Of a stretch of 64,000 nucleotides of DNA, positions 1,594-54,528 are shown one piece after another (position 1 is the stretch's first letter; every line of letters starts with the position of its first letter). This DNA comes from a virus. Taxonomy: Duplodnaviria; Caudoviricetes. A program made the translations under genes and the position numbers. The notes below the pieces were generated by a model that saw only the letters and a program-made list of their open reading frames with translations, had not been told where the DNA came from and searched no databases. The stretch spans positions 1 to 64,000 of IMG/VR virus record IMGVR_UViG_3300028601_000027, one strand, 5' to 3'.

Positions 1594-2952
1594 ATGGCTA
1601 ATATTCAATTTTTATTCGAGTCAGAATTACTAGTAGAGATAAGTCTACAAGACCACTACGATAAGTTTGGTGATAAGTTTAATGTAGACGATTACGAAAG
1701 ATACCAACAGATAGCCAAATTAGACCCTACATCTAATGATGGTAAGATTAAGGGTAAGTATACTGAATGGCTACTAAAGCAATTTGGTGACATGTCTGAT
1801 AGCGTATTTGAAGCTAATGTTAAAGATAATGATTATAAGAAATGGCTAGAAGGATTAGGTAATATTAAGGGGTTTGATATAAACCAATATAAATCCCTAG
1901 ATGATTTGAAAGATTATTATAATAGCTTAGATGAAGAGGATTTACTTAGTAGTAAGGAAAAGAAAAAGCGTCAGAAAAACATACTACAAAATAGCGAACA
2001 CGTAAAAATCATTTATAAAGATGCTGAATATATAGTAGCTAAACCTATTACTAAGCAGGGTAATATACTATTAGCTAGATATAAGTGTCCTGAATCAGCT
2101 AAATGGTGTACTGCTGATCCTAATAATGATAGTCATTGGGAACGGTATATGGAACGTGGAGAATTATTTAGTGTTATTCCTTTAGCTAATCCTGAAGAGA
2201 AGTTTCATGTATACGTGGAAGATGGATATGTTGACGAGTTAAGAGATTTTGAGGATGATGATTACATGGAAGAAGGATTAGAAATATTAAAGGAACTAGA
2301 TGAGAAAAGTGAAGGACAACTTAGGGAGCAAATGGGAGTAGAGGAATTTGAAAGGTCACAACTAAAATTAGAAATTAGTAACGAAGAATCGGCTATTTAT
2401 TATATTTTTGGTCAACCAGAACTGTTTGATTATTTCAATAGATCACCTAGTGATACTGAAGCGGAAACTGGCGATTATGTAGTAGAATTTATTGCTGATT
2501 TAGATATAAGACCATTAACTCAGAAATTTTTTGGTGGCGTATTTGACTATGGGGTTGAAGGTGATATGCGTGTTGTGAGAAAGTTTGTTGAAGTTTTAGA
2601 GTCAGCAATAGAATCAGAACACATGACTAAGATGGAAATAGAATCGTTTTTTGACTTAGTAGCTGATGAAGAATTTGAAGTAGCAATAGAAAGAATTGGT
2701 GAGGATTTAGCCTATGATTTAGAAAATGAAGAAATAGAAAATCCTAAACAATACGTTATCAACTTTCTTGAAAGAGAAGATTTAAGAAATTACTTAGAAG
2801 AAACTACATCAATGTTAATCCACCAAATAGAATTAAGACTTGATATAACTATTAATAAACCGTGGGAAGATGAAGAAGAAGTACAAGATAGGATATTAGA
2901 CTACTTAAACATAGAAGAATCTAAGAAACCAACTTGGGCTAAGTTTGTATAA
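1594..2952 (+). CDS. Acidic protein with PcfJ-like (WCT..Y...G) domain, possible virion protein
   Basis: KWCTA...WERY..RGELFSVI motif; N-terminus MANIQFLFE shared with the next ORF; follows a late promoter motif. Confidence 0.45.
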   Translation: MANIQFLFESELLVEISLQDHYDKFGDKFNVDDYERYQQIAKLDPTSNDGKIKGKYTEWLLKQFGDMSDSVFEANVKDNDYKKWLEGLGNIKGFDINQYKSLDDLKDYYNSLDEEDLLSSKEKKKRQKNILQNSEHVKIIYKDAEYIVAKPITKQGNILLARYKCPESAKWCTADPNNDSHWERYMERGELFSVIPLANPEEKFHVYVEDGYVDELRDFEDDDYMEEGLEILKELDEKSEGQLREQMGVEEFERSQLKLEISNEESAIYYIFGQPELFDYFNRSPSDTEAETGDYVVEFIADLDIRPLTQKFFGGVFDYGVEGDMRVVRKFVEVLESAIESEHMTKMEIESFFDLVADEEFEVAIERIGEDLAYDLENEEIENPKQYVINFLEREDLRNYLEETTSMLIHQIELRLDITINKPWEDEEEVQDRILDYLNIEESKKPTWAKFV

Positions 2953-2964
2953 AGGATTATCACA

Positions 2965-4719
2965 ATGGCTAATATAGAATTTCTACTAGAAGCAGTTAAT
3001 TATGAACAGATGTTTGAGGGTATGTTTAATGTGTTTGAGGGCGATAACCAAAACAAAGTTAAACAAGCTATCCATAAAGAAATTAAGAAAGCTAAGGCTA
3101 CCTTAAAGAAACAAGATAGAGTTACTTGGTACTTAAAGGTACTTAAGAAAACTATCATTGACGTACTGGACACTGAATTTGATAAGGATAAGAATAGACT
3201 ATACACTACGGGATTAGGAGTATTCGATTTCGATGATGACGAAGAAAGACAAAGAACTAAGGAACGGTTTGAGAAATACTTTAAGAAAGAGATTAAGAAA
3301 CTAAATGATATTAGTATAGAGAACTCTATTCAATCTGTTCAACAAACATTACCTAGATTAGAACATTATCTATCATTGCCTATAGGTGGTATTCAAAACT
3401 ACTCTTGGAAAACCCAATCTATTGATGATGTACTTTCTGAGTTTGAGCGATTAGAAAGAGAATGGAAAAAGGATTCAAAAGAGTTAATACCAGTAGATGA
3501 AGATGATGAGATAATAATGAAAATGGGTGATTATTATTGGGTTGATTTAGAAAAGGCTTATTGTAGTAAAGAAGGTGACGCAATGGGTCACTGTGGTAAT
3601 TCTCCAAGGTCAGGCGAAAATGATACTATTTATAGTCTAAGACAATTAAAAAAGTTTGGTAATAAAAAGTATTGGCATCCACATGTTACTGTTACTCTAG
3701 ATGAAGATTTAATGGTATGGGAAGTTAAGGGTAGAGGGAACGATAAACCTGCTGATAAGTATATCCCTTATGTGGTAGAATTATTTAGTAATGGTAAGTA
3801 TGTTAAAGGACAAAGAACAGGTGTAGGCTACTTACCAGAAAATAACTTATACTTTGAAGATGATTTTACTGAGGAACAACAAGAAAAGGTTAAAACTAAA
3901 AATCCTCAATTTGAGATAGTTGAAAGAGAACCTATTAAAATGGTACTAGATGAATATGATTTACCTGCGTTTGTGTTTTTTGAAGATTTTGATTATGGTC
4001 AGTTTACAAATAGACCAATAGAAAATGGAGAAGACATGGAGGAAGTATTACAAAACGATCCTGAATTAAACATAGCTAATTTTAATAAGCTAATAGATGA
4101 GGGATTAAGTGCTTACCTAGTTTGTGATTATGATTGTGAAGTGAGATTAGAAACGTTTATGAATTACATTAAAGAGTTTATGGAGACTAATAGAAGTGAA
4201 GTAGTACAAGCTATAGCTGATTTATTTGAAGACCAGTACAATGTCTTTATTAACTACTTAGACAATGAAATAGATAAGGAAATAGAAGGCTACATAGATG
4301 AAGAGTTTGATGAGTTTGATTGGACTGAAGATACTCTTGATGCAGAAGATAAAGAAAAAATGTTAGATAAATTAATGAATGATTGGGATTATTTCTTAGA
4401 GGATTATTATAAGAGGCAAGGTACAAAGCTGGGCGATAAGGTTATTGAGTACCTAGAAGAATTGGATTACTTGTTTCCTAATGGTGAAGAGCCATATAAT
4501 CCTAAGCATACGTTTTACGATGTAGTAGATGATGGAGAAGAGTTTATATCAAATAGAATGTTACAAGTGATTAAAGAAAAGAAACGAGAAGCATTAGGTG
4601 ATGATTATGAAGAGGGTGACGAAAAATCACAGGCAGAAATAGATAAAGAACTAGGGCAACTAGAATTTGATTTTGGGGAATCACTAAAACCTAAATGGCG
4701 CAATTTAGTAATTATGTAG
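2965..4719 (+). CDS. Acidic protein with PcfJ-like domain
   Basis: EGDAMGHCG...IYSLR...PHVTV...EVKGRGNDKP motif; N-terminus MANIEFLLE. Confidence 0.55.
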   Translation: MANIEFLLEAVNYEQMFEGMFNVFEGDNQNKVKQAIHKEIKKAKATLKKQDRVTWYLKVLKKTIIDVLDTEFDKDKNRLYTTGLGVFDFDDDEERQRTKERFEKYFKKEIKKLNDISIENSIQSVQQTLPRLEHYLSLPIGGIQNYSWKTQSIDDVLSEFERLEREWKKDSKELIPVDEDDEIIMKMGDYYWVDLEKAYCSKEGDAMGHCGNSPRSGENDTIYSLRQLKKFGNKKYWHPHVTVTLDEDLMVWEVKGRGNDKPADKYIPYVVELFSNGKYVKGQRTGVGYLPENNLYFEDDFTEEQQEKVKTKNPQFEIVEREPIKMVLDEYDLPAFVFFEDFDYGQFTNRPIENGEDMEEVLQNDPELNIANFNKLIDEGLSAYLVCDYDCEVRLETFMNYIKEFMETNRSEVVQAIADLFEDQYNVFINYLDNEIDKEIEGYIDEEFDEFDWTEDTLDAEDKEKMLDKLMNDWDYFLEDYYKRQGTKLGDKVIEYLEELDYLFPNGEEPYNPKHTFYDVVDDGEEFISNRMLQVIKEKKREALGDDYEEGDEKSQAEIDKELGQLEFDFGESLKPKWRNLVIM

Positions 4720-21633: not shown

Positions 21634-22194
21634 TTACTTTTTAGAGCGTATTTGTTTTATTCGTCTACCTATCCCGCTATCTTCTACACATGCTTCATGT
21701 AGACTGAATATTTTACCTGCCCCACCACCTCTTAGGATAGTGTAACCATACTCAAACTTATCTCGCTTGAAATCCTTACCATCACTAGCTATCTTGTCTT
21801 TATTACCTTCTTTGTCAATAATGAATACCTCAGTAGAACCTTCTGGTTTAAACATAAACCCATCTTGCTCATACTTCTTAGTGTTCTCTAAGAGAATGTT
21901 ATATAGCTTATCATTATCATTTTCTGAACCAATGACTAAGATAGAATCTTCTTGTACATCTACCTTTTCACCAGTTTCTTCATTAGTTTCTTTCCATGCA
22001 CCATCTACCCAAACATAACCATAACCAGCACTTCTTAGTTTCTGAGCTAGTATTTTGTTATCCCTAAGACCATCTTCTACGGGTTTATCTTTCCTGAAAG
22101 TAGTGATTACTCCCACTGGGATATCAGGATTAGTGAAATGATTAAACACTCGTGATAGTTTTACTTCTGTTAGATATTGTTTATAGTTTTTCAT
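21634..22194 (-). CDS. SAM lyase/hydrolase-like protein (T3 gp0.3-like family) with capsid-targeting-like N-terminus
   Basis: GVITTFR...N..L...LR..GYG...GAWKE...EDS...YEQD matches the T3 SAMase pattern (SAFRS...LR...G.Y.E...EE...WEQD). Confidence 0.6.
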   Translation of the reverse strand: MKNYKQYLTEVKLSRVFNHFTNPDIPVGVITTFRKDKPVEDGLRDNKILAQKLRSAGYGYVWVDGAWKETNEETGEKVDVQEDSILVIGSENDNDKLYNILLENTKKYEQDGFMFKPEGSTEVFIIDKEGNKDKIASDGKDFKRDKFEYGYTILRGGGAGKIFSLHEACVEDSGIGRRIKQIRSKK

Positions 22195-22744
22195 AATCTT
22201 CTCCGTTTAATAGACTTTCTAATTTAGACTTAGCTGTATTAGCGATTACTATAGTCTTATTTCCATAACCATCATTCTTAACTTCAGTTACTTCCCAACT
22301 GTCAGTGTGTTGTAGTAACACCTTATTAATAATCTTCCTATATAGTTCTACTCTATCTGGTCTAGCTGTGATATGTATTGGTCTAGTGTATTGAATAGTT
22401 TCTAGTATGATCTTTGCTATACTGGCGAATACGCTTAATGAAGTTTTACCTAGTGTATTAGTATTTTCGTATTCGTTCTTTTGACTAAGGTTTATGAAAT
22501 GAAATTCGGTATGTTTAGGTTTTTCAATGCTGAACAACAATATATCATCTTTGTCCTCAATCAAGTAACCATACCTAAACCTAGTGTTCTTTAACTTATC
22601 ATCTATCATTTCATGTTCATCAGGGTGTAACTCTTTATACATATCAGATAATAGTTTTCTCACTTCCATAGGGGTTTTCTTCTTATATGGTAGTGCATTG
22701 TTTAGGTCAAATGATTCTACTATATATTGTTTATATGTTCTCAT
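22181..22744 (-). CDS. Putative internal head protein
   Basis: N-terminus MRTYKQYIVE is close to T4 IP MKTYQEFIAE. Confidence 0.5.
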   Translation of the reverse strand: MRTYKQYIVESFDLNNALPYKKKTPMEVRKLLSDMYKELHPDEHEMIDDKLKNTRFRYGYLIEDKDDILLFSIEKPKHTEFHFINLSQKNEYENTNTLGKTSLSVFASIAKIILETIQYTRPIHITARPDRVELYRKIINKVLLQHTDSWEVTEVKNDGYGNKTIVIANTAKSKLESLLNGEDYEKL

Positions 22745-22753
22745 TAATCTTCT

Positions 22754-22930
22754 CTAACCCCTCTTTTTATAATATGATCCGTCTTTTCTTTGCAGCCACG
22801 CCCCTATCGGGGCTTTTTCTTCTGCTTTGCACCGCCAACAAATTTCTTGCGGAGACGAGTAATGAACGTTCGGGGTTTTGTCGTTCTCAATGATCTTTGA
22901 TCCGCATTTTTTACACACTGTTTTTCTCAT
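22754..22930 (-). CDS. Small CxxC/CxxC Zn-binding protein (58 aa) next to an attC half-site
   Basis: Read manually (MRKTVCKKCG...CWRC...KRG*); GAGGAG RBS; GC-richer than the flanks. Confidence 0.6.
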   Translation of the reverse strand: MRKTVCKKCGSKIIENDKTPNVHYSSPQEICWRCKAEEKAPIGAWLQRKDGSYYKKRG

Positions 22931-22956
22931 AGAATTCTCCTCTTCTCAGTAGCGCA

Positions 22957-22980
22957 AACTAACAATTAGTTCAAGCGGAT
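22957..22980 (+). other. attC-like left half-site (R'' AACTAAC, 5-nt spacer, L'' GTTCAAGC)
   Basis: AACTAAC-AATTA-GTTCAAGC-GGAT parallels aadA attC (GTCTAAC-AATTC-ATTCAAGC-CGAC). Confidence 0.65.
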
Positions 22981-23121
22981 GTGCTCTAGTGTGCTTTCGG
23001 CCATAAAAAAGGTGGCGTCGCCCAGCTCTGATGCTATCAGCACTTCACCAACCTCACATTGCCTCGCGAGTCTGTTTTTGGTTGGCTATGGCTCCTCGCA
23101 CGACGCCATAAATCAAAAATC

Positions 23122-23169
23122 ACATAACCATACATTCAAATGGGCAAGCCGGTTAACGCGACGTTATAT
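23122..23169 (+). other. Short attC-like site (48 bp)
   Basis: ACATAAC-5-ATTCAAAT-GGGCAAGCC-GGTTAAC-5-GTTATAT; the stop codon of ORF 23164-23472 lies in the GTTA core. Confidence 0.65.
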
Positions 23170-23472
23170 GTTCTCATTATTCTTCTCTAAACACTCTTTT
23201 AGTATAGCTCCATTTCCAGTATAACCATGATGTGCTAACCATACAGGATCAGCAGTTTTAGTATCTACGATTTTACCATGAACATAGTTATGAGGTAGAG
23301 GAGTACCATAAGGAACCATGTCGAAAAACTTCTTCCAATATTGTACTACCTTGTTTTTATTACCTAGTTTCTCTACTACTGTTTTCAGTCTAATTTTACG
23401 ATTCCATTCTAGAGCTACCTTGAATTCCAGACTATCTTTATCCAATCCACCATGTTGAATAATCATACTCAC
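23164..23472 (-). CDS. Hypothetical protein ending in the attC core
   Basis: ORF track; TAA overlaps GTTATAT. Confidence 0.7.
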   Translation of the reverse strand: MSMIIQHGGLDKDSLEFKVALEWNRKIRLKTVVEKLGNKNKVVQYWKKFFDMVPYGTPLPHNYVHGKIVDTKTADPVWLAHHGYTGNGAILKECLEKNNENI

Positions 23473-49205: not shown

Positions 49206-50921
49206 CTACTCCTGAAAGAATTGTTCATAAGATTTAATCTCTACTCCTAGTGACTTTGCTTTCTTAGTCTTACTTGTACCAGAATCAGGGTTATCTGTCA
49301 ACAATAAGTTTGTATCCTTATTTACACTAGACTGAATCTTCCAACCTTGTTCTTCTAGGTGTTGAGTAAGTTGTTTGCGATTATACTTATCACACTTACC
49401 AGTAAACACTATATTACCCTTAGTTTGATTAGTTTTATCTACTGTCTTAATAGTGCAGAAGTAGGATAGTGTTTCAAACATAGCCTTAAACCTATTTCTA
49501 TTTGTAACTATATTAGTAATAGATTTTTCAGCAAATCCCTCTAGTGGGGCTAAACTAGTTTCTAAATCCTCACATGCTAGGAAGTTTTCAATAGAACCAA
49601 AATGGTCAATAAGTTTTTGACATTGTTTATTTCCCATACCTTTAATCATAGCACATTCTAATATTTGTGCTTCAGTTAGTTCTACAGTGTTTAACATGTA
49701 GAAAATATATTCAGCAGTCTTTTTACCAAAACCATCAATAATTTCGATGTCCTCTACTTCAGCTTCAAAGTAATCATCTATTAACTTAAATCCATTTACA
49801 TATAGTTTTTCAATAGTCGAATCACTAATGTAATCAAGATCAAATACTTTAAAAATGTGTTTGAGTAGAGTTAAGTCATTGTGTACACAATTCTTACACA
49901 CTAAGTGTACACCGTTTTCGTCTACTTCAGAGATAGACTTACAGTTAGGACAAAACACAGGCGGTAAAATGTAACTTTGTTCTACTACAGTGTGAACGAA
50001 TGGTATTATATCCCCACTTTTTATTACCTTAACTTGAGCACCAATCCCTAATCCAGCAGTCTTAACTATTCCATAGTTAGAAGCAGATACACGACTAACG
50101 GTAGTACCATCAATATCCACAGGCTCATCCAAAATAATAACAGGATACAAGATTCCATGTTTACCTAAACTCCATTCAATGTTGCCTACTGTAGCTAATT
50201 CACCTTCTTTATTGAACTTTAGGGCAATGATGTTATCTGGTAATAGTTCATTATCATTACTGTAATCCCCATTACCTTCTACTACTAATCCATCAATTTC
50301 ATATTCGTGATTATTTTTGTAGTACCTAAAGTTACTCTCTAGTTCAAGATAATCAGGAGTGCTATAATAGACTACCTTAGCTAAGGTTTCAAATGGTACT
50401 ACATGAATTTTAGCTAGTTCATTTGGTATAGCTTCTTTCCTATTAATCAAACCTGACACTACATTGCGAACATTTTTCTCATAGTCTGCTTGACACACTT
50501 TAGGCATGATAGCTTCACATTTGACACTATTAATATCGCTGGTTAGTTCTAAGAAACCCAATGCACTAGTATCACAATGCTTAATGTTATCAGTAACATC
50601 ATTACCCTCATAACCATTCCCTCTAGTTATTGCCTGAATAATATTACCATTTTTGTTTAGAATGACTTCAATACTATTTCCATCTAGCTTAGGAGTAACA
50701 GAAAATACAGTATTACTCTTAGCCCACTTATAGAAATCATCTTCAGTTTTAACCTTTTTTAAACTACCCATTGGGGAATGATGATTTGCCTTATTCCTGA
50801 AATTACGAGTGTCTAATCCATGATCTGAGATTAGGTTAAACTCTTCATCAGTTAGGATAGGACTATCACCATTATAATATTGTTCGTTTGCTATTTGTTT
50901 TAAGTTAGCCACTATTCTCAC
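49206..50921 (-). CDS. ligA: NAD-dependent DNA ligase
   Basis: YYNG..ILTDEEFN, PKLDG, TRGNG.EG.DVT, EIDGLV, Zn finger, C-terminal BRCT. Confidence 0.93.
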   Translation of the reverse strand: MRIVANLKQIANEQYYNGDSPILTDEEFNLISDHGLDTRNFRNKANHHSPMGSLKKVKTEDDFYKWAKSNTVFSVTPKLDGNSIEVILNKNGNIIQAITRGNGYEGNDVTDNIKHCDTSALGFLELTSDINSVKCEAIMPKVCQADYEKNVRNVVSGLINRKEAIPNELAKIHVVPFETLAKVVYYSTPDYLELESNFRYYKNNHEYEIDGLVVEGNGDYSNDNELLPDNIIALKFNKEGELATVGNIEWSLGKHGILYPVIILDEPVDIDGTTVSRVSASNYGIVKTAGLGIGAQVKVIKSGDIIPFVHTVVEQSYILPPVFCPNCKSISEVDENGVHLVCKNCVHNDLTLLKHIFKVFDLDYISDSTIEKLYVNGFKLIDDYFEAEVEDIEIIDGFGKKTAEYIFYMLNTVELTEAQILECAMIKGMGNKQCQKLIDHFGSIENFLACEDLETSLAPLEGFAEKSITNIVTNRNRFKAMFETLSYFCTIKTVDKTNQTKGNIVFTGKCDKYNRKQLTQHLEEQGWKIQSSVNKDTNLLLTDNPDSGTSKTKKAKSLGVEIKSYEQFFQE

Positions 50922-50948
50922 TCCTTCGCTGCGCGGACAGCGTTATAT
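50921..50948 (+). repeat. 24-bp direct repeat copy 1 / degenerate attC right half (GTTATAT core)
   Basis: CTCCTTCGCTGCGCGGACAGCGTT versus CTCCTTCGCTACACGGACAGCGTT at 52119-52142. Confidence 0.6.
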
Positions 50949-51140
50949 GTTCGCTTCTTTACATTCCTGCTCCGTAACTCCAAGCGCACCCAGCACATCA
51001 TAAAGTGAGGGCCAAGTGTCACTGGCTTCATCGTACAACCCCATGTCGTCCATCATGTCTACCCACCAGTCATCGAACCCCCCATCTCGGTCTGTCAATC
51101 TGGCGACGATCTGTATTGCTTGCTTTTGTGTAATCCTCAT
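50943..51140 (-). CDS. Hypothetical cassette-like protein
   Basis: GC-richer; stop overlaps the GTTA core. Confidence 0.7.
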   Translation of the reverse strand: MRITQKQAIQIVARLTDRDGGFDDWWVDMMDDMGLYDEASDTWPSLYDVLGALGVTEQECKEANI

Positions 51141-51383
51141 CCCTTTATCCTTTCCTCTGCTTGTAACGACAAAGTATTTCCTTTTGGAGGTTAGCTAGAA
51201 AAGAGCGCGAGTCTGCGCCATCATATTTTATAAGGTGCTCGAAACCCCATTGGGTAACATCTTCAGCACACCGCAGCACTTCTTCATTTTTAGCCAACTG
51301 TTCACGGAGTTCGTTTATCTCTGACTTTGATACTCTAACTTCTGGTATTTTAATTCTCCCTATAACGAGCTATGAAGGTCAAT

Positions 51384-51443
51384 ACATAACCAGCGGGTCA
51401 AGCGGACGCGAAACCCCGCGCCGCTTACCCTTATGCGTTAGAA
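51384..51443 (+). other. Complete 60-bp attC-like site
   Basis: ACATAAC-CAGCG-GGTCAAGC-GGACGCG-AAACCC-CGCGCC-GCTTACC-CTTATGC-GTTAGAA; both canonical extrahelical positions present. Confidence 0.85.
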
Positions 51444-51740
51444 AACATCCCGGCGAACGGCGGCAATCATCTGTGCCTTGCCGTCTGCAATGGTCACTTT
51501 GCCAATGCAGTGCGAAAGCCGCTCGGTCAGGCCGCTTGCCATCGGCATGGTCAGCATTACAACCCGGCCCAATAGGTCGGCCAGCGTCACCTGGAAGCCG
51601 TCTCCAAGGTCCACGGTTGCTGATTCGCAAACTTCTTGTGAAAGATCAAAGTATTGGTCTTCGTCGCTCTGGATGTGCTCCGGGTAGATCAGCGCCAGAA
51701 GCTCGTGCATTTCAAGATCGTCAAGTGGTTGTGTTTTCAT
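51438..51740 (-). CDS. Hypothetical cassette-like protein (start MKTQP)
   Basis: GC-rich; stop TAA is the complement of TTA in the attC core. Confidence 0.7.
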   Translation of the reverse strand: MKTQPLDDLEMHELLALIYPEHIQSDEDQYFDLSQEVCESATVDLGDGFQVTLADLLGRVVMLTMPMASGLTERLSHCIGKVTIADGKAQMIAAVRRDVF

Positions 51741-51746
51741 CTTCGT

Positions 51747-51768
51747 CCCCTTAGCTTCGGTGTTAGCC
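51747..51768 (+). other. attC-like right half-site
   Basis: CCCCTTAGC-TTCGGT-GTTAGCC resembles the VCR right arm; the stop of ORF 51763-52113 lies in the core. Confidence 0.6.
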
Positions 51769-52113
51769 TTCCATCGCCAGCTTAATTGCTCGGCGCACTG
51801 GTACAAGTGCTTCCTTATAAAATCTAACCCAATCATCTTCACCGGGCTGTGTGAAATAGTTGTCTACACAGCGCAGCGCCTCCAGCATTTCAGGCGCGGC
51901 GGCAATCAGTTTGGCGTTGGCCTCGTGTTCTTCTTTTGTAATCTCGTATTCTTGATTTTTTGCTATGTTTACCATTGCCACATGCTTTCTTGGGCTGTTC
52001 GCTGCGGCTTTTGAGTTTATTGCTGTCCGGCAATGTGTCGCGTCTGCTTCCCATGGCCCATTTGTGTGAACCGGGTAATCTTTCCCGCTGTAGGCTGTTT
52101 TGTTGTCGTTCAT
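51763..52113 (-). CDS. Hypothetical cassette-like protein (HTNGPW...ANAKLIAAAPEMLEAL)
   Basis: Motif typical of temperate-phage small proteins; AAGGAGG RBS. Confidence 0.78.
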   Translation of the reverse strand: MNDNKTAYSGKDYPVHTNGPWEADATHCRTAINSKAAANSPRKHVAMVNIAKNQEYEITKEEHEANAKLIAAAPEMLEALRCVDNYFTQPGEDDWVRFYKEALVPVRRAIKLAMEG

Positions 52114-52275
52114 CTTACCTCCTTCGCTACACGGACAGCGTTGTCTTTCATTTTACAGCAAACTCTCTTCGCTTATAACTTCACCGTCGAGCAACAACTG
52201 AATATTAATGCAGTCTGAGTACATAGACCCGCTATCATCAAGCCCTCCGGTGTAACTGCTGTTGACCTCTTTGTT

Positions 52276-52518
52276 TTATCTGTTTAAAGAGTTCCACTTT
52301 ATTTCTGCTGACATCATTGCACGTGAAAACTGGCTCTTTTCGATATCGTGCCCGTTTCCTTTATCTAGGTCTCGGTCATTATATGTCTCAACAGACACAC
52401 TAACTCCACACTGACAAAAAATGCTAGCAGTGCTTGTGTGGTAAAAACTACCATCAGACTCATATTTGTTTTTTGTTGGTCTAGACCCGCAACTTTTACA
52501 ATTTGTTAATTCCCACAT
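52276..52518 (-). CDS. Lar-like (restriction alleviation-type) Zn-finger protein
   Basis: LTNCKSCG...IFCQCG...A..KWN. Confidence 0.5.
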   Translation of the reverse strand: MWELTNCKSCGSRPTKNKYESDGSFYHTSTASIFCQCGVSVSVETYNDRDLDKGNGHDIEKSQFSRAMMSAEIKWNSLNR

Positions 52519-52527
52519 ATCGGCCTC

Positions 52528-52578
52528 CAGCTAATCAACCGGACTGCCAACGCAGCCGGTTATCGTTGATCGTTATTT
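52528..52578 (+). other. Near-complete attC-like site lacking the R'' box
   Basis: CAGCT-AATCAACC-GGACTG-CCAACG-CAGCC-GGTTATC-GTTGATC-GTTATTT; R'' is replaced by the RBS of the next gene. Confidence 0.75.
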
Positions 52579-52629
52579 CCACAGCTTGCCGCAACTCAAC
52601 TTACCCTCTGGACATGCTTAAATCTCCTT

Positions 52630-53205
52630 TCACATCACAAACCACTTAACGAAATCCTTAGCTGTAGTGCTAAGTTCTTCTAATCCATCATAATTATGAA
52701 TAACTAAATCCGCAATCTCAAATACGTTTTTAGTTTCATCGTCACTAGCATTACCATATACTTTATCATTATCATTGTCAACATAAATAATTGCTAGTTC
52801 TGGATAGCGTTCTTTTAGTTTAAGTATTTCGCTCTTTTCCCTAACATGTAGAAACAATAGATCATCCCAACCTTTATTTTCAATCACACTAGCGCATTGC
52901 TCAAAAGGGAAGTCATTATAATCAGTAAGTAGTTGTTTAAACCCACTCAGAAACCGCCTATACTTCTCATTCTTATCATTACAATCTAGGTTAAAGAACT
53001 TCTCTGAAACCCATCTAATATAATCTACACTAGAGAAATTAATTGTTTGTGGATAATAAGTCTTCACAAAATTAACAAATGTATCTTTGCCTGCTTGAGG
53101 ACTGCCTGTAATAGCAAACACTCGTGTTTTTTTGTTTACAGTTAAAATATCTGAATCTACATCTACAATAATGTTGTAGTTTAGTACGCCTTGTTCGTTG
53201 TTCAT
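52630..53205 (-). CDS. P-loop nucleotide (dNMP-like) kinase
   Basis: AITGSPQAGKDT...HVRE..E. Confidence 0.7.
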   Translation of the reverse strand: MNNEQGVLNYNIIVDVDSDILTVNKKTRVFAITGSPQAGKDTFVNFVKTYYPQTINFSSVDYIRWVSEKFFNLDCNDKNEKYRRFLSGFKQLLTDYNDFPFEQCASVIENKGWDDLLFLHVREKSEILKLKERYPELAIIYVDNDNDKVYGNASDDETKNVFEIADLVIHNYDGLEELSTTAKDFVKWFVM

Positions 53206-54154: not shown

Positions 54155-54528
54155 GTGAACTACACACTACCCTAAAGGGTAGGTGTTTCTTGGGTAATTA
54201 ATGCTTTTAATAGCCACTAAAATTTACCAAGCTAACTGGGTCATCCCAACCCTTTTTATGTTTATACTTGCATTATAATCTCTGTCTATTTCTAAACTAC
54301 ATTGCTCACAACTATATACTCTCTCTGCTAATAACTGATTATACATAAACCTTGCTGAACCTATTGTCTTATTAATTAGTATTTCTTGTTCCTTATTTGG
54401 ATATAACCTAAACTTATATGCTTTATTTAACTTAATCATATACTATCTCACCACCTTTCTTTATATTTTGTATTTCGCAATTCATCCACTACCCTAAAGG
54501 GTTAGTGGTTTTATTGTGAAGATTAAAT
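54155..54528 (-). mobile_element. Non-autonomous IS200/IS605-family element with internally deleted tnpB (374 bp)
   Basis: TTTAT precedes the left end; right end ...GTAGTTCAC; twin subterminal hairpins CACTACCCTAAAGGG. Confidence 0.82.
54224..54439 (-). pseudogene. tnpB: tnpB remnant (N-terminal HTH joined directly to the C-terminal Zn ribbon)
   Basis: [13 protein letters not shown]...ARFMYN joined to [19 protein letters not shown]. Confidence 0.88.

Follow-up and report, generated by a model that had tools for sequence, protein, structure and literature searches.

Integron-type attC sites in a foreign island of a T4-like phage, probably brought in with donor viral DNA

In the hyperplastic regions of T4-type phages, modules are reportedly shuffled through short repeated regulatory sequences, the PeSL cassettes (an account of 2010 ascribed to Arbiol et al.). 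Here we describe a GC-rich island with integron-type attC sites in a T4-like phage of landfill origin. The island lies in a window of 64 kb, the whole stretch of DNA that was analysed, which is the first part of the 88,897-bp IMG/VR record IMGVR_UViG_3300028601_000027 (CheckV completeness about 50%). Like those T4-type regions, the locus is a variable slot between conserved replication genes, with junctions at short repeated expression signals. Unlike in PeSL cassettes, the repeated signal is a donor-type ribosome-binding leader rather than an early promoter with a stem-loop, and the cargo holds integron sites.

Two described systems come closer. Qi et al. 2023 (PMC9892861) reported integrons, attC site clusters that have no integron integrase (CALINs) and functional attC sites in temperate and virulent phages, including an unclassified myovirus; they noted several open reading frames (ORFs) between sites and mixed orientations, and suggested mosaicism and illegitimate recombination as the route. 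Since phage-borne attC clusters were thus published in 2023, the island belongs to an already known kind, and like the phage CALINs it has attC sites without intI within a phage genome. Unlike them, it has one intact site per island, the others being demonstrably deleted remnants; an empty site and donor-type arrays could be identified, and gene polarity is inverted, the sites themselves being known from sequence alone. Inverted polarity with a stop in the R' core is not discussed in that paper. The second system is the single attC lacking an integrase (SALIN) of Loot et al. (bioRxiv 10.1101/2022.09.11.507474), who also described insertion of cassettes by IntI at GWT (attG) sites. Similar to it are the isolated attC beside a gene and the expectation that a GWT insertion would leave the R' G against a target TT, as seen at 23163|23164. 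Different are the island edges at 50909 and 52622, which are off the core, and a 44-nt replacement and a 27-nt flanking repeat that this mechanism does not explain.

In our best reading, the island probably results from bulk capture of donor DNA in a variable slot by ordinary phage recombination, followed by decay of the attC sites. The sites look like relics of shuffling in a donor pool rather than a working cassette system of this phage. A T4-like phage thereby joins the few virulent phages known with attC sites, and the empty site, the donor-type arrays and base-precise cassette boundaries make the history of such an element readable, which is unusual. They suggest that modules of the integron type move around among the accessory genes of phages and are able to enter lytic ones, in which the sites would decay into expression signals. 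The consistent inverted polarity of phage-borne sites is the newest lead here, and one that is cheap to test at scale.

Intact attC sites and their remnants

Candidate sites were scored with two covariance models made for this analysis, not with those of IntegronFinder. Four annotated arrays of class 1 integrons supplied 14 attC sites between cassette genes as seeds; one of them, the aadA1 attC, was confirmed as 100% identical to R100 and thousands of plasmids. The model built from these 14 seeds, R1, includes both bulges as well as the pairs R''/R' and L''/L'. Run on 65 integron loci that had been retrieved with IntI1, it gave 121 matches at E ≤ 1, nearly all upstream of intI and on the expected strand; on 64 of those loci at E ≤ 0.002 it gave 97 matches, every one of which (97/97) was upstream of intI on the expected strand. 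The second model, R2, was built from these 97 matches and thus from integron arrays only; it recovered all plasmid sites with 36–78 bits. On the whole 88.9-kb record R2 finds exactly two sites, and on the other T4-like contigs L002, L013 and L113–L119 it finds no attC. The sites and remnants are these:

51384–51443, top strand plus, recombinogenic bottom strand minus: intact attC, R2 match to the full model, 30.8 bits, E 1e-4
23122–23169, plus strand: intact attC of a second island, R2 25.8 bits, E 0.002
52534–52578, plus strand: degenerate attC, with an inner L''/L' hairpin at 52534–52563 and an R'-like GTTATTT at 52572–52578
51747–51768, plus strand: attC right half (L'-spacer-G) with R' core GTTAGCC, ORF100's own attC by homology to contig L003
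50921–50944, minus strand: 24-nt motif, copy 1 of a direct repeat, providing the Shine-Dalgarno sequence now used by ligA
52119–52142, minus strand: 24-nt motif, copy 2 (direct repeat D1), a donor gene tail (..NAVRVAKE) with the ribosome-binding site of ORF116

The site at 51384–51443 also matches R1 over its full length (22.3 bits), and it is strand-specific, the minus strand scoring only 3.9 bits with R2. Its cores, R'' = ACATAAC and R' = G|TTAGAA, have one mismatch each to RYYYAAC and G|TTRRRY. As DNA it folds into an imperfect hairpin (z = −4.1) with bulges 6 bp apart, C and A on the plus strand and hence T and G on the minus strand. In the model alignment the spacers are 5 nt and 7 nt; the free-energy fold instead pairs CATAA with TTATG and leaves a one-sided 5-nt loop. 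The site thus combines inverse cores, an L''/L' hairpin with T and G bulges and a significant covariance score, and by model and geometry the sites of the window are integron-type attC sites. The original prediction, made from the letters alone, had placed here a full 60-bp attC with two extrahelical bases; both models and the fold bear this out, and covariance scoring, for which it had named IntegronFinder and HattCI, yielded a full-length match to integron-only models. The length class, the layout R''-spacer-L''(TCAAGCxGAC)...L'-spacer-R' and the bulge positions are those of class 1 aadA-type 60-bp attC sites, from which it differs by a score below the range of the plasmid sites, by R'' and R' boxes of which only 4 bp are able to pair, and by a gene on the opposite strand. 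Indeed, the attC top strand is plus and all ORFs are on minus; gene polarity is therefore inverted, as had been claimed. The hairpin is 93% identical to a site of viral contig L016, and an exact pattern of its core occurs in seven viral-contig stretches, that is, in six contigs besides L016 itself. Some X2 and X3 contigs have an extra G in the loop, at 51415. X3 contigs with loose ends at 51385 may only be other elements sharing the attC.

Might these hairpins be regulatory elements of the phage, terminators or RNA processing sites, that resemble attC by chance? They are intergenic and would be included in transcripts, a weak terminator activity has been ascribed to attC sites (PMC9892861), and the genes lie on the 'wrong' strand for cassettes. 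We nevertheless consider this very improbable, given a full-length and strand-specific match to an integron-only model, conserved AAC/GTT cores, bulge positions and spacers, homology that breaks exactly at G|TT, and no T run behind the stem. A search of Rfam returned no family.

The remaining sites of this island are remnants. With filters off, R2 gives a local match at 52534–52563 (model positions 14–52, 14 bits, E 0.018 in a 2.1-kb search); the R'' box is absent, and its place is taken by the Shine-Dalgarno sequence of ORF80. A near-full attC had been predicted at 52528–52578, of which the inner hairpin stands and the R'' box does not. Among three predicted right half-sites, only one held. 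At 51747–51762, 15/16 bases are identical to the right half of the L003 site 5987–5931, and the alignment of the window with L003, in which 42 nt are deleted, identifies this stretch as a true attC right half. The deletion removed the left half and loop of ORF100's attC (the 42 nt that make up R'', L'' and loop in L003) and left the remnant AAGGGG, which stands before the ORF100 ATG today as a Shine-Dalgarno sequence. The other two, at 50928–48 and 52126–46, belong to the 24-nt repeat and gave nothing with R2, filters off. The motif was rejected as an attC half-site: in viral contig L012 it combines the end of a 92-aa gene (C-terminus ..NAVRAAKE..) with the ribosome-binding site of the gene that follows, and in L019 its core GCAGCGAAGGAGG stands ahead of three successive genes. 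Judged from these homologues, the motif is a donor-type gene tail with a ribosome-binding leader. Replacement of outer arms by ribosome-binding sites, also part of the original prediction, was confirmed for two arms.

The inventory of the first island is therefore one full site, one 14-bit match to the core only and one right half known by homology only; by strict count it is a single-attC element, a SALIN. Neither TIGR02249 (intI) nor PF00589 (tyrosine recombinase) has a match across the 88.9-kb record, which upholds and extends the earlier statement that no intI is present. Without intI beside the array, the locus is not a complete integron, and it agrees with a CALIN in having no integron integrase nearby in the 88.9 kb scanned. 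Two small observations concern the remnants. In run X2, which belongs to another landfill study, this island has 10 nt inserted (CTACAGATAA) at 52526, between the ORF80 start and the degenerate attC. The 12-mer CGTTATATGTTC is common to both islands (23162 and 50941); the L019 homologue of ORF65 also ends ATATAA, and the sharing may be partly chance.

Cassette units and donor-type viral contigs

The cargo of the island consists of small minus-strand genes and gene fragments:

51438–51762, minus strand: cassette unit with ORF100 (51438–51740), G|TT at both ends, from the L003 alignment
51763–52113, minus strand: ORF116, small phage protein (phrog_1273, E 9e-14), stop at G|TTAGCC
50943–51140, minus strand: ORF65, small phage protein (phrog_7985, E 2e-6), 75% homologues in L018 and L019
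51145–51369, minus strand: start-less fragment, a 74-codon open frame with no good start, kin of a 92–102-aa gene of L012 and L019
51352–51383, minus strand: segment common to the T4-like relative L119 (3340–3371), 96.9% identical over 32 nt, adjoining the outer edge of the attC
52276–52518, minus strand: ORF80, Cys-rich small protein, taken from the ORF list
52573–52614, minus strand: 3' remnant of a thyX-like gene (CPEGKLSCGKLWK and stop) at the kinase-side island edge, matching the C-terminus of a 236-aa ORF of L019

It had been noticed that ORF stops coincide with the crossover, TAA being the complement of the TTA after G|TT. This proved correct at 50943, 51438, 51763 and 52573, where the TAA stops sit exactly at G|TTA. 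The unit with ORF100 has base-precise boundaries. Read along the attC top strand, the homology between the window and the temperate-phage contig L003 extends from GCG|TTAGAAAAC to CCCCTTAGCTTCGGYG|TTA, and beyond both G|TT points the two are unrelated. As judged from this base-exact alignment, the unit 51438–51762 shows integron-type shuffling, which would have taken place in the donor pool. ORF100 has 209 homologues, the best of which (P0001) is 96% identical in protein and 91% in DNA; in L003–L008 the homologues are placed between ERF/SSB genes and a phage integrase. When checked as a possible integron integrase, the L003 enzyme proved not to be of that type.

The boundary 51762|51763 is likewise marked by breaks in homology. 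The ORF116 unit begins TTAGCCTTCC... (G|TTAGCC) after differing attC sites in the window and in L016, and five X2 contigs start matching the window at 51762 with diverse sequence upstream. Hence, of the G|TT-delimited units that had been proposed, 51438–51762 and the boundary 51762|51763 stand. The unit 50943–51437 does not, because its part 51352–51383 is nearly identical to DNA of a T4-like relative. For the same reason the island must be composite. The L119 contig ends at this match. The 32-nt element (ATTGACC..TATAGGGAGAATT) occurs in two T4-like relatives with otherwise different variable regions and once in the 88.9-kb record; it is possibly a module of promoter and ribosome-binding site.

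Homologues of ORF116 occur in L013–L017, and in runs from landfill, groundwater and biofilm they are both plentiful and variable, at a depth of ~30 vs 4 for the flanks, with internal deletions of 69 and 117 nt in some of the contigs. As no more than a lead, the atlas look-alikes of ORF116 are clusters with the P22 Y8K6 domain (score 0.93). The pattern of the window's ORF116–ORF100 junction was not found in metagenome contigs. Compared as DNA with collections of phages, E. coli and plasmids, the island gave no match other than one of 51 nt, inside ORF116, to Ralstonia phages. The start-less fragment has 85% nucleotide identity over 62 nt to L012. Two or three ORFs of the island are start-less, which agrees with the headless fragments reported earlier. 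ORF80 has no family match in Pfam and PHROG scans. In a tblastx comparison 52586–52618 matches L019 1681–1713; the label thyX-like is provisional and comes from a reading of the L019 protein sequence.

Where the cassettes come from is suggested by viral contigs of about 0.5 GC, in which the cassettes and attC types of the island also occur, in multi-site arrays. For this reason the donor-pool viral contigs are the more likely place of the shuffling. At least two such contigs have phage hallmark genes, L003 with a phage integrase and L016 with HNH and terminase. R2 finds three sites (47, 41.5 and 35 bits) behind three consecutive genes in the array region L003 5611–6347 and four in L016 1588–3408, so that these donor-type contigs score 35–47 bits at three to four sites each; further R2 sites lie in L014, L015, L017 and L106–L111. 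In the ~0.5-GC contigs (L003, L016, L106–L111) arrays of 2–4 strong attC sites are seen in which the genes systematically occupy the bottom strand of attC and have their TAA at the crossover, and in L110 two attC sites face each other.

Across 20 phage sites the stems covary, in an alignment that was fitted to the model: 87.8% of cells are paired vs 75% in shuffles, with 47 double-sided changes, and the observed score is attained in 0/500 shuffles. Pairing in the L helix amounts to 95.8% across phage sites, with 8/11 pairs covarying, and AAC/GTT is invariant in 20/20. An ORF of 44–187 codons ends exactly at the crossover in 13/21 phage sites. Bona fide integron sites have such an ORF (at least 44 codons) in only 12/85 cases, which is about chance, and a top-strand ORF in 74/85. 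A canonical cassette has its ORF upstream of its own attC and on the top strand of that site; the ORFs found here are on the bottom strand.

It is conceivable, if doubtful, that this arrangement (attC, ribosome-binding site, bottom-strand ORF, TAA in the R' core) is a cassette format of the phages' own, by which genes pass among temperate phages and on to lytic T4-like phages via host integron integrases. If so, the sense strand would be the bottom strand, so that transcription would leave the recombinogenic strand unpaired and might favour exchange during infection. Both islands of the record would then be the lytic-phage end of a phage-wide cassette market, which may bear on the origin of integron cassettes.

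Outside the donor-type contigs, the low-GC T4-like contig L013 has at 2800–3400 a 0.55-kb GC island after an Rnl1-like gene, with an ORF116 homologue (94% nucleotide identity over 175 nt) and a Zn-ribbon ORF. The stop lies within GGGTAACCGGTTGCGC, which is also, base for base, the left arm of the L015 attC: another trimmed site in a different slot.

Island limits and route of entry

The limits of the island follow from relatives in which the slot is empty. The landmarks are:

50909–52622, no strand assigned: island of foreign GC-rich DNA, 1714 nt, separating the dNMP-kinase-like gene from ligA, defined by the GC shift and empty-site contigs
49206–50912, minus strand: NAD-dependent DNA ligase (ligA), native flank, by Pfam and PHROG; 87% identical to the L002 ligase
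52630–53205, minus strand: dNMP-kinase-like gene, native flank (phrog_139), with 95% identical relatives in L116–L118
53209–54147, minus strand: RNA ligase 2 (Rnl2), neighbour of the kinase-like gene

GC content is about 0.32 in the flanks and 0.42–0.55 in the island, with a peak of 0.55 (0.337 overall). The GC-richer island claimed between ligA and the kinase is thus real, and its exact limits come from Logan contigs L116–L118 and a contig of run X5, which join 50908 to 52623 via 44 other nt. The island is therefore 50909–52622, and the 44-nt native spacer between kinase and ligA was substituted, not merely interrupted. Relatives show three states of the locus: this empty site; the L002 type, in which Rnl2 continues directly into ligA; and the L119 type (kinase protein 77% identical, Rnl2–kinase DNA 76%), with other small genes behind the kinase. 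Upstream of ligA the sequence differs in each relative examined. The ligA search in metagenome contigs and the kinase search in viral contigs each returned no relatives.

The abrupt GC shift and the single source record might raise the suspicion of a metagenome assembly chimera between a T4-like phage and unrelated GC-rich DNA. We find this hardly credible. Independent assemblies, made from other runs and studies, cross each of the two junctions, X2 record 3 spanning 50062–51431 with zero differences on the ligA side and X4 record 20 spanning 52371–52728 with 1 difference on the kinase side, so that the island is not an assembly artefact; moreover, the ribosome-binding site of ligA comes from the island. 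Run X4 covers parts of the island only, and its uncovered parts cannot be read as absence. All of the window is present in Logan contigs of a landfill metagenome.

The edges themselves are not at attC cores. On the kinase side the native stop and AAGGAGA are followed by the thyX-like remnant. On the ligA side, which consists of a Shine-Dalgarno sequence and the first codons of ligA, the island ends GCGAAGGAG, 8 nt, GTGG, where the empty-site relatives have GAAAGGATGAATAAATGA before the shared CTAACTTAAAA. A GTTAGCC at the ligA start (50904–50910) was considered as an R' core of the island edge and rejected, as the empty-site relatives also have CTAAC there.

The second island, at 22758–23163, is separate, GC-richer and about 0.4 kb long. 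The R' G of its attC adjoins the TAA of a native gene, the native sequence beginning TTATATG. A 27-nt direct repeat (22731–22757 and 23164–23190) flanks the island, being the tail of ORF 23164–23472 and the start of ORF 22181–22744.

In the bulk-capture reading, we infer the route of entry together with the shuffling in the donors and the expression of the ORFs. The island would be pieced together from small accessory genes that came in from viral contigs of about 50% GC. Within this donor pool, individual genes bounded by attC would be exchanged through integrase-type crossovers at G|TT, and since the donor genes lie on the attC bottom strand, each TAA stop would be the complement of the TTA in an R' core. 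A block of donor DNA, probably in more than one event, would then have taken the place of the 44-nt spacer. Ordinary illegitimate or short-homology recombination is the likely mechanism, because the junctions fall at Shine-Dalgarno sequences, inside the thyX-like gene and where the attC hairpin has its base. As passengers of this DNA the attC sites would have come along, one staying intact and the others losing their arms, with remnants that presumably now act as spacers and ribosome-binding sites. The imported ORFs may since be read within the minus-strand gene series of the phage.

Several observations weigh against this reading. None of the donor contigs found reproduces the order of genes in the window exactly, and capture in one piece is therefore no more than possible. 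The junction of T4-like DNA with attC, 51383|51384, lies exactly at the outer edge of the site, and the attC of the second island abuts the stop of a native gene exactly at G|TTA; random breakpoints would seldom fall at either place. With the record about 50% complete, intI may lie elsewhere in the genome or in the host, and the intact sites could still be substrates of a host integrase.

These points lead to the alternative of active capture, in which a host IntI inserts cassettes at attC or secondary GWT sites during infection and reshuffles them, the phage then trimming the sites. Consistent with it are the canonical geometry of an intact attC, units that are bounded by G|TT, two separate islands with attC in each and, in the second, the R' G joined directly to native TTATATG. 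Moreover, cassette insertion by IntI is known from GWT sites that lie outside integrons (bioRxiv 10.1101/2022.09.11.507474), and attC sites from virulent phages recombine with attI1 (PMC9892861). We still judge it unlikely. Neither outer edge is at an attC core, 44 native nt were replaced, and the kinase-side edge is a truncated gene; the 27-nt direct repeat around the second island is not the product of a conservative recombinase. The G|TT-exact comparisons were made to donor-type contigs rather than to relatives of this phage, and the close relatives seen either lack the island (L002, L116–L118) or carry it nearly unchanged (X2). Finally, the 88.9 kb contain no integrase.

The original prediction had the phage itself capturing and shuffling cassettes. 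The edges off the cores, the 44 replaced nt, the T4-like segment inside, one intact site per island and the missing integrase all speak against this. Its further idea, that sites were trimmed into compact operons, survives insofar as remnants serve as ribosome-binding sites, but not with the phage as capturer and shuffler. Bulk capture, which it had named as the outcome that would overturn it, nearly matches what we found, except that the sites do pass a covariance model. Thus, the observation was confirmed in part and its interpretation is supported in part.

Neighbouring genes and further features of the second island

The neighbouring genes of the main island are of T4-like phage type, every one on the minus strand. 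They include, besides those listed above:

neighbouring gene, minus strand: gp59-like helicase loader, by Pfam and PHROG matches

In the second island, a Zn-ribbon ORF lies at 22754–22930, and an aadA-like left half at 22957–22980 agrees, by eye, in about 20/24 bases with the model consensus. The similarity of the flanking repeats fades over about 45 nt, and the C-terminus of ORF58 therefore looks like a duplicated gene tail. Beyond Rnl2, a 71-aa ORF at 54224–54439 resembles, again by eye, the fused ends of a TnpB (OrfB) gene of the IS200/IS605 type, which would make it a deleted remnant.

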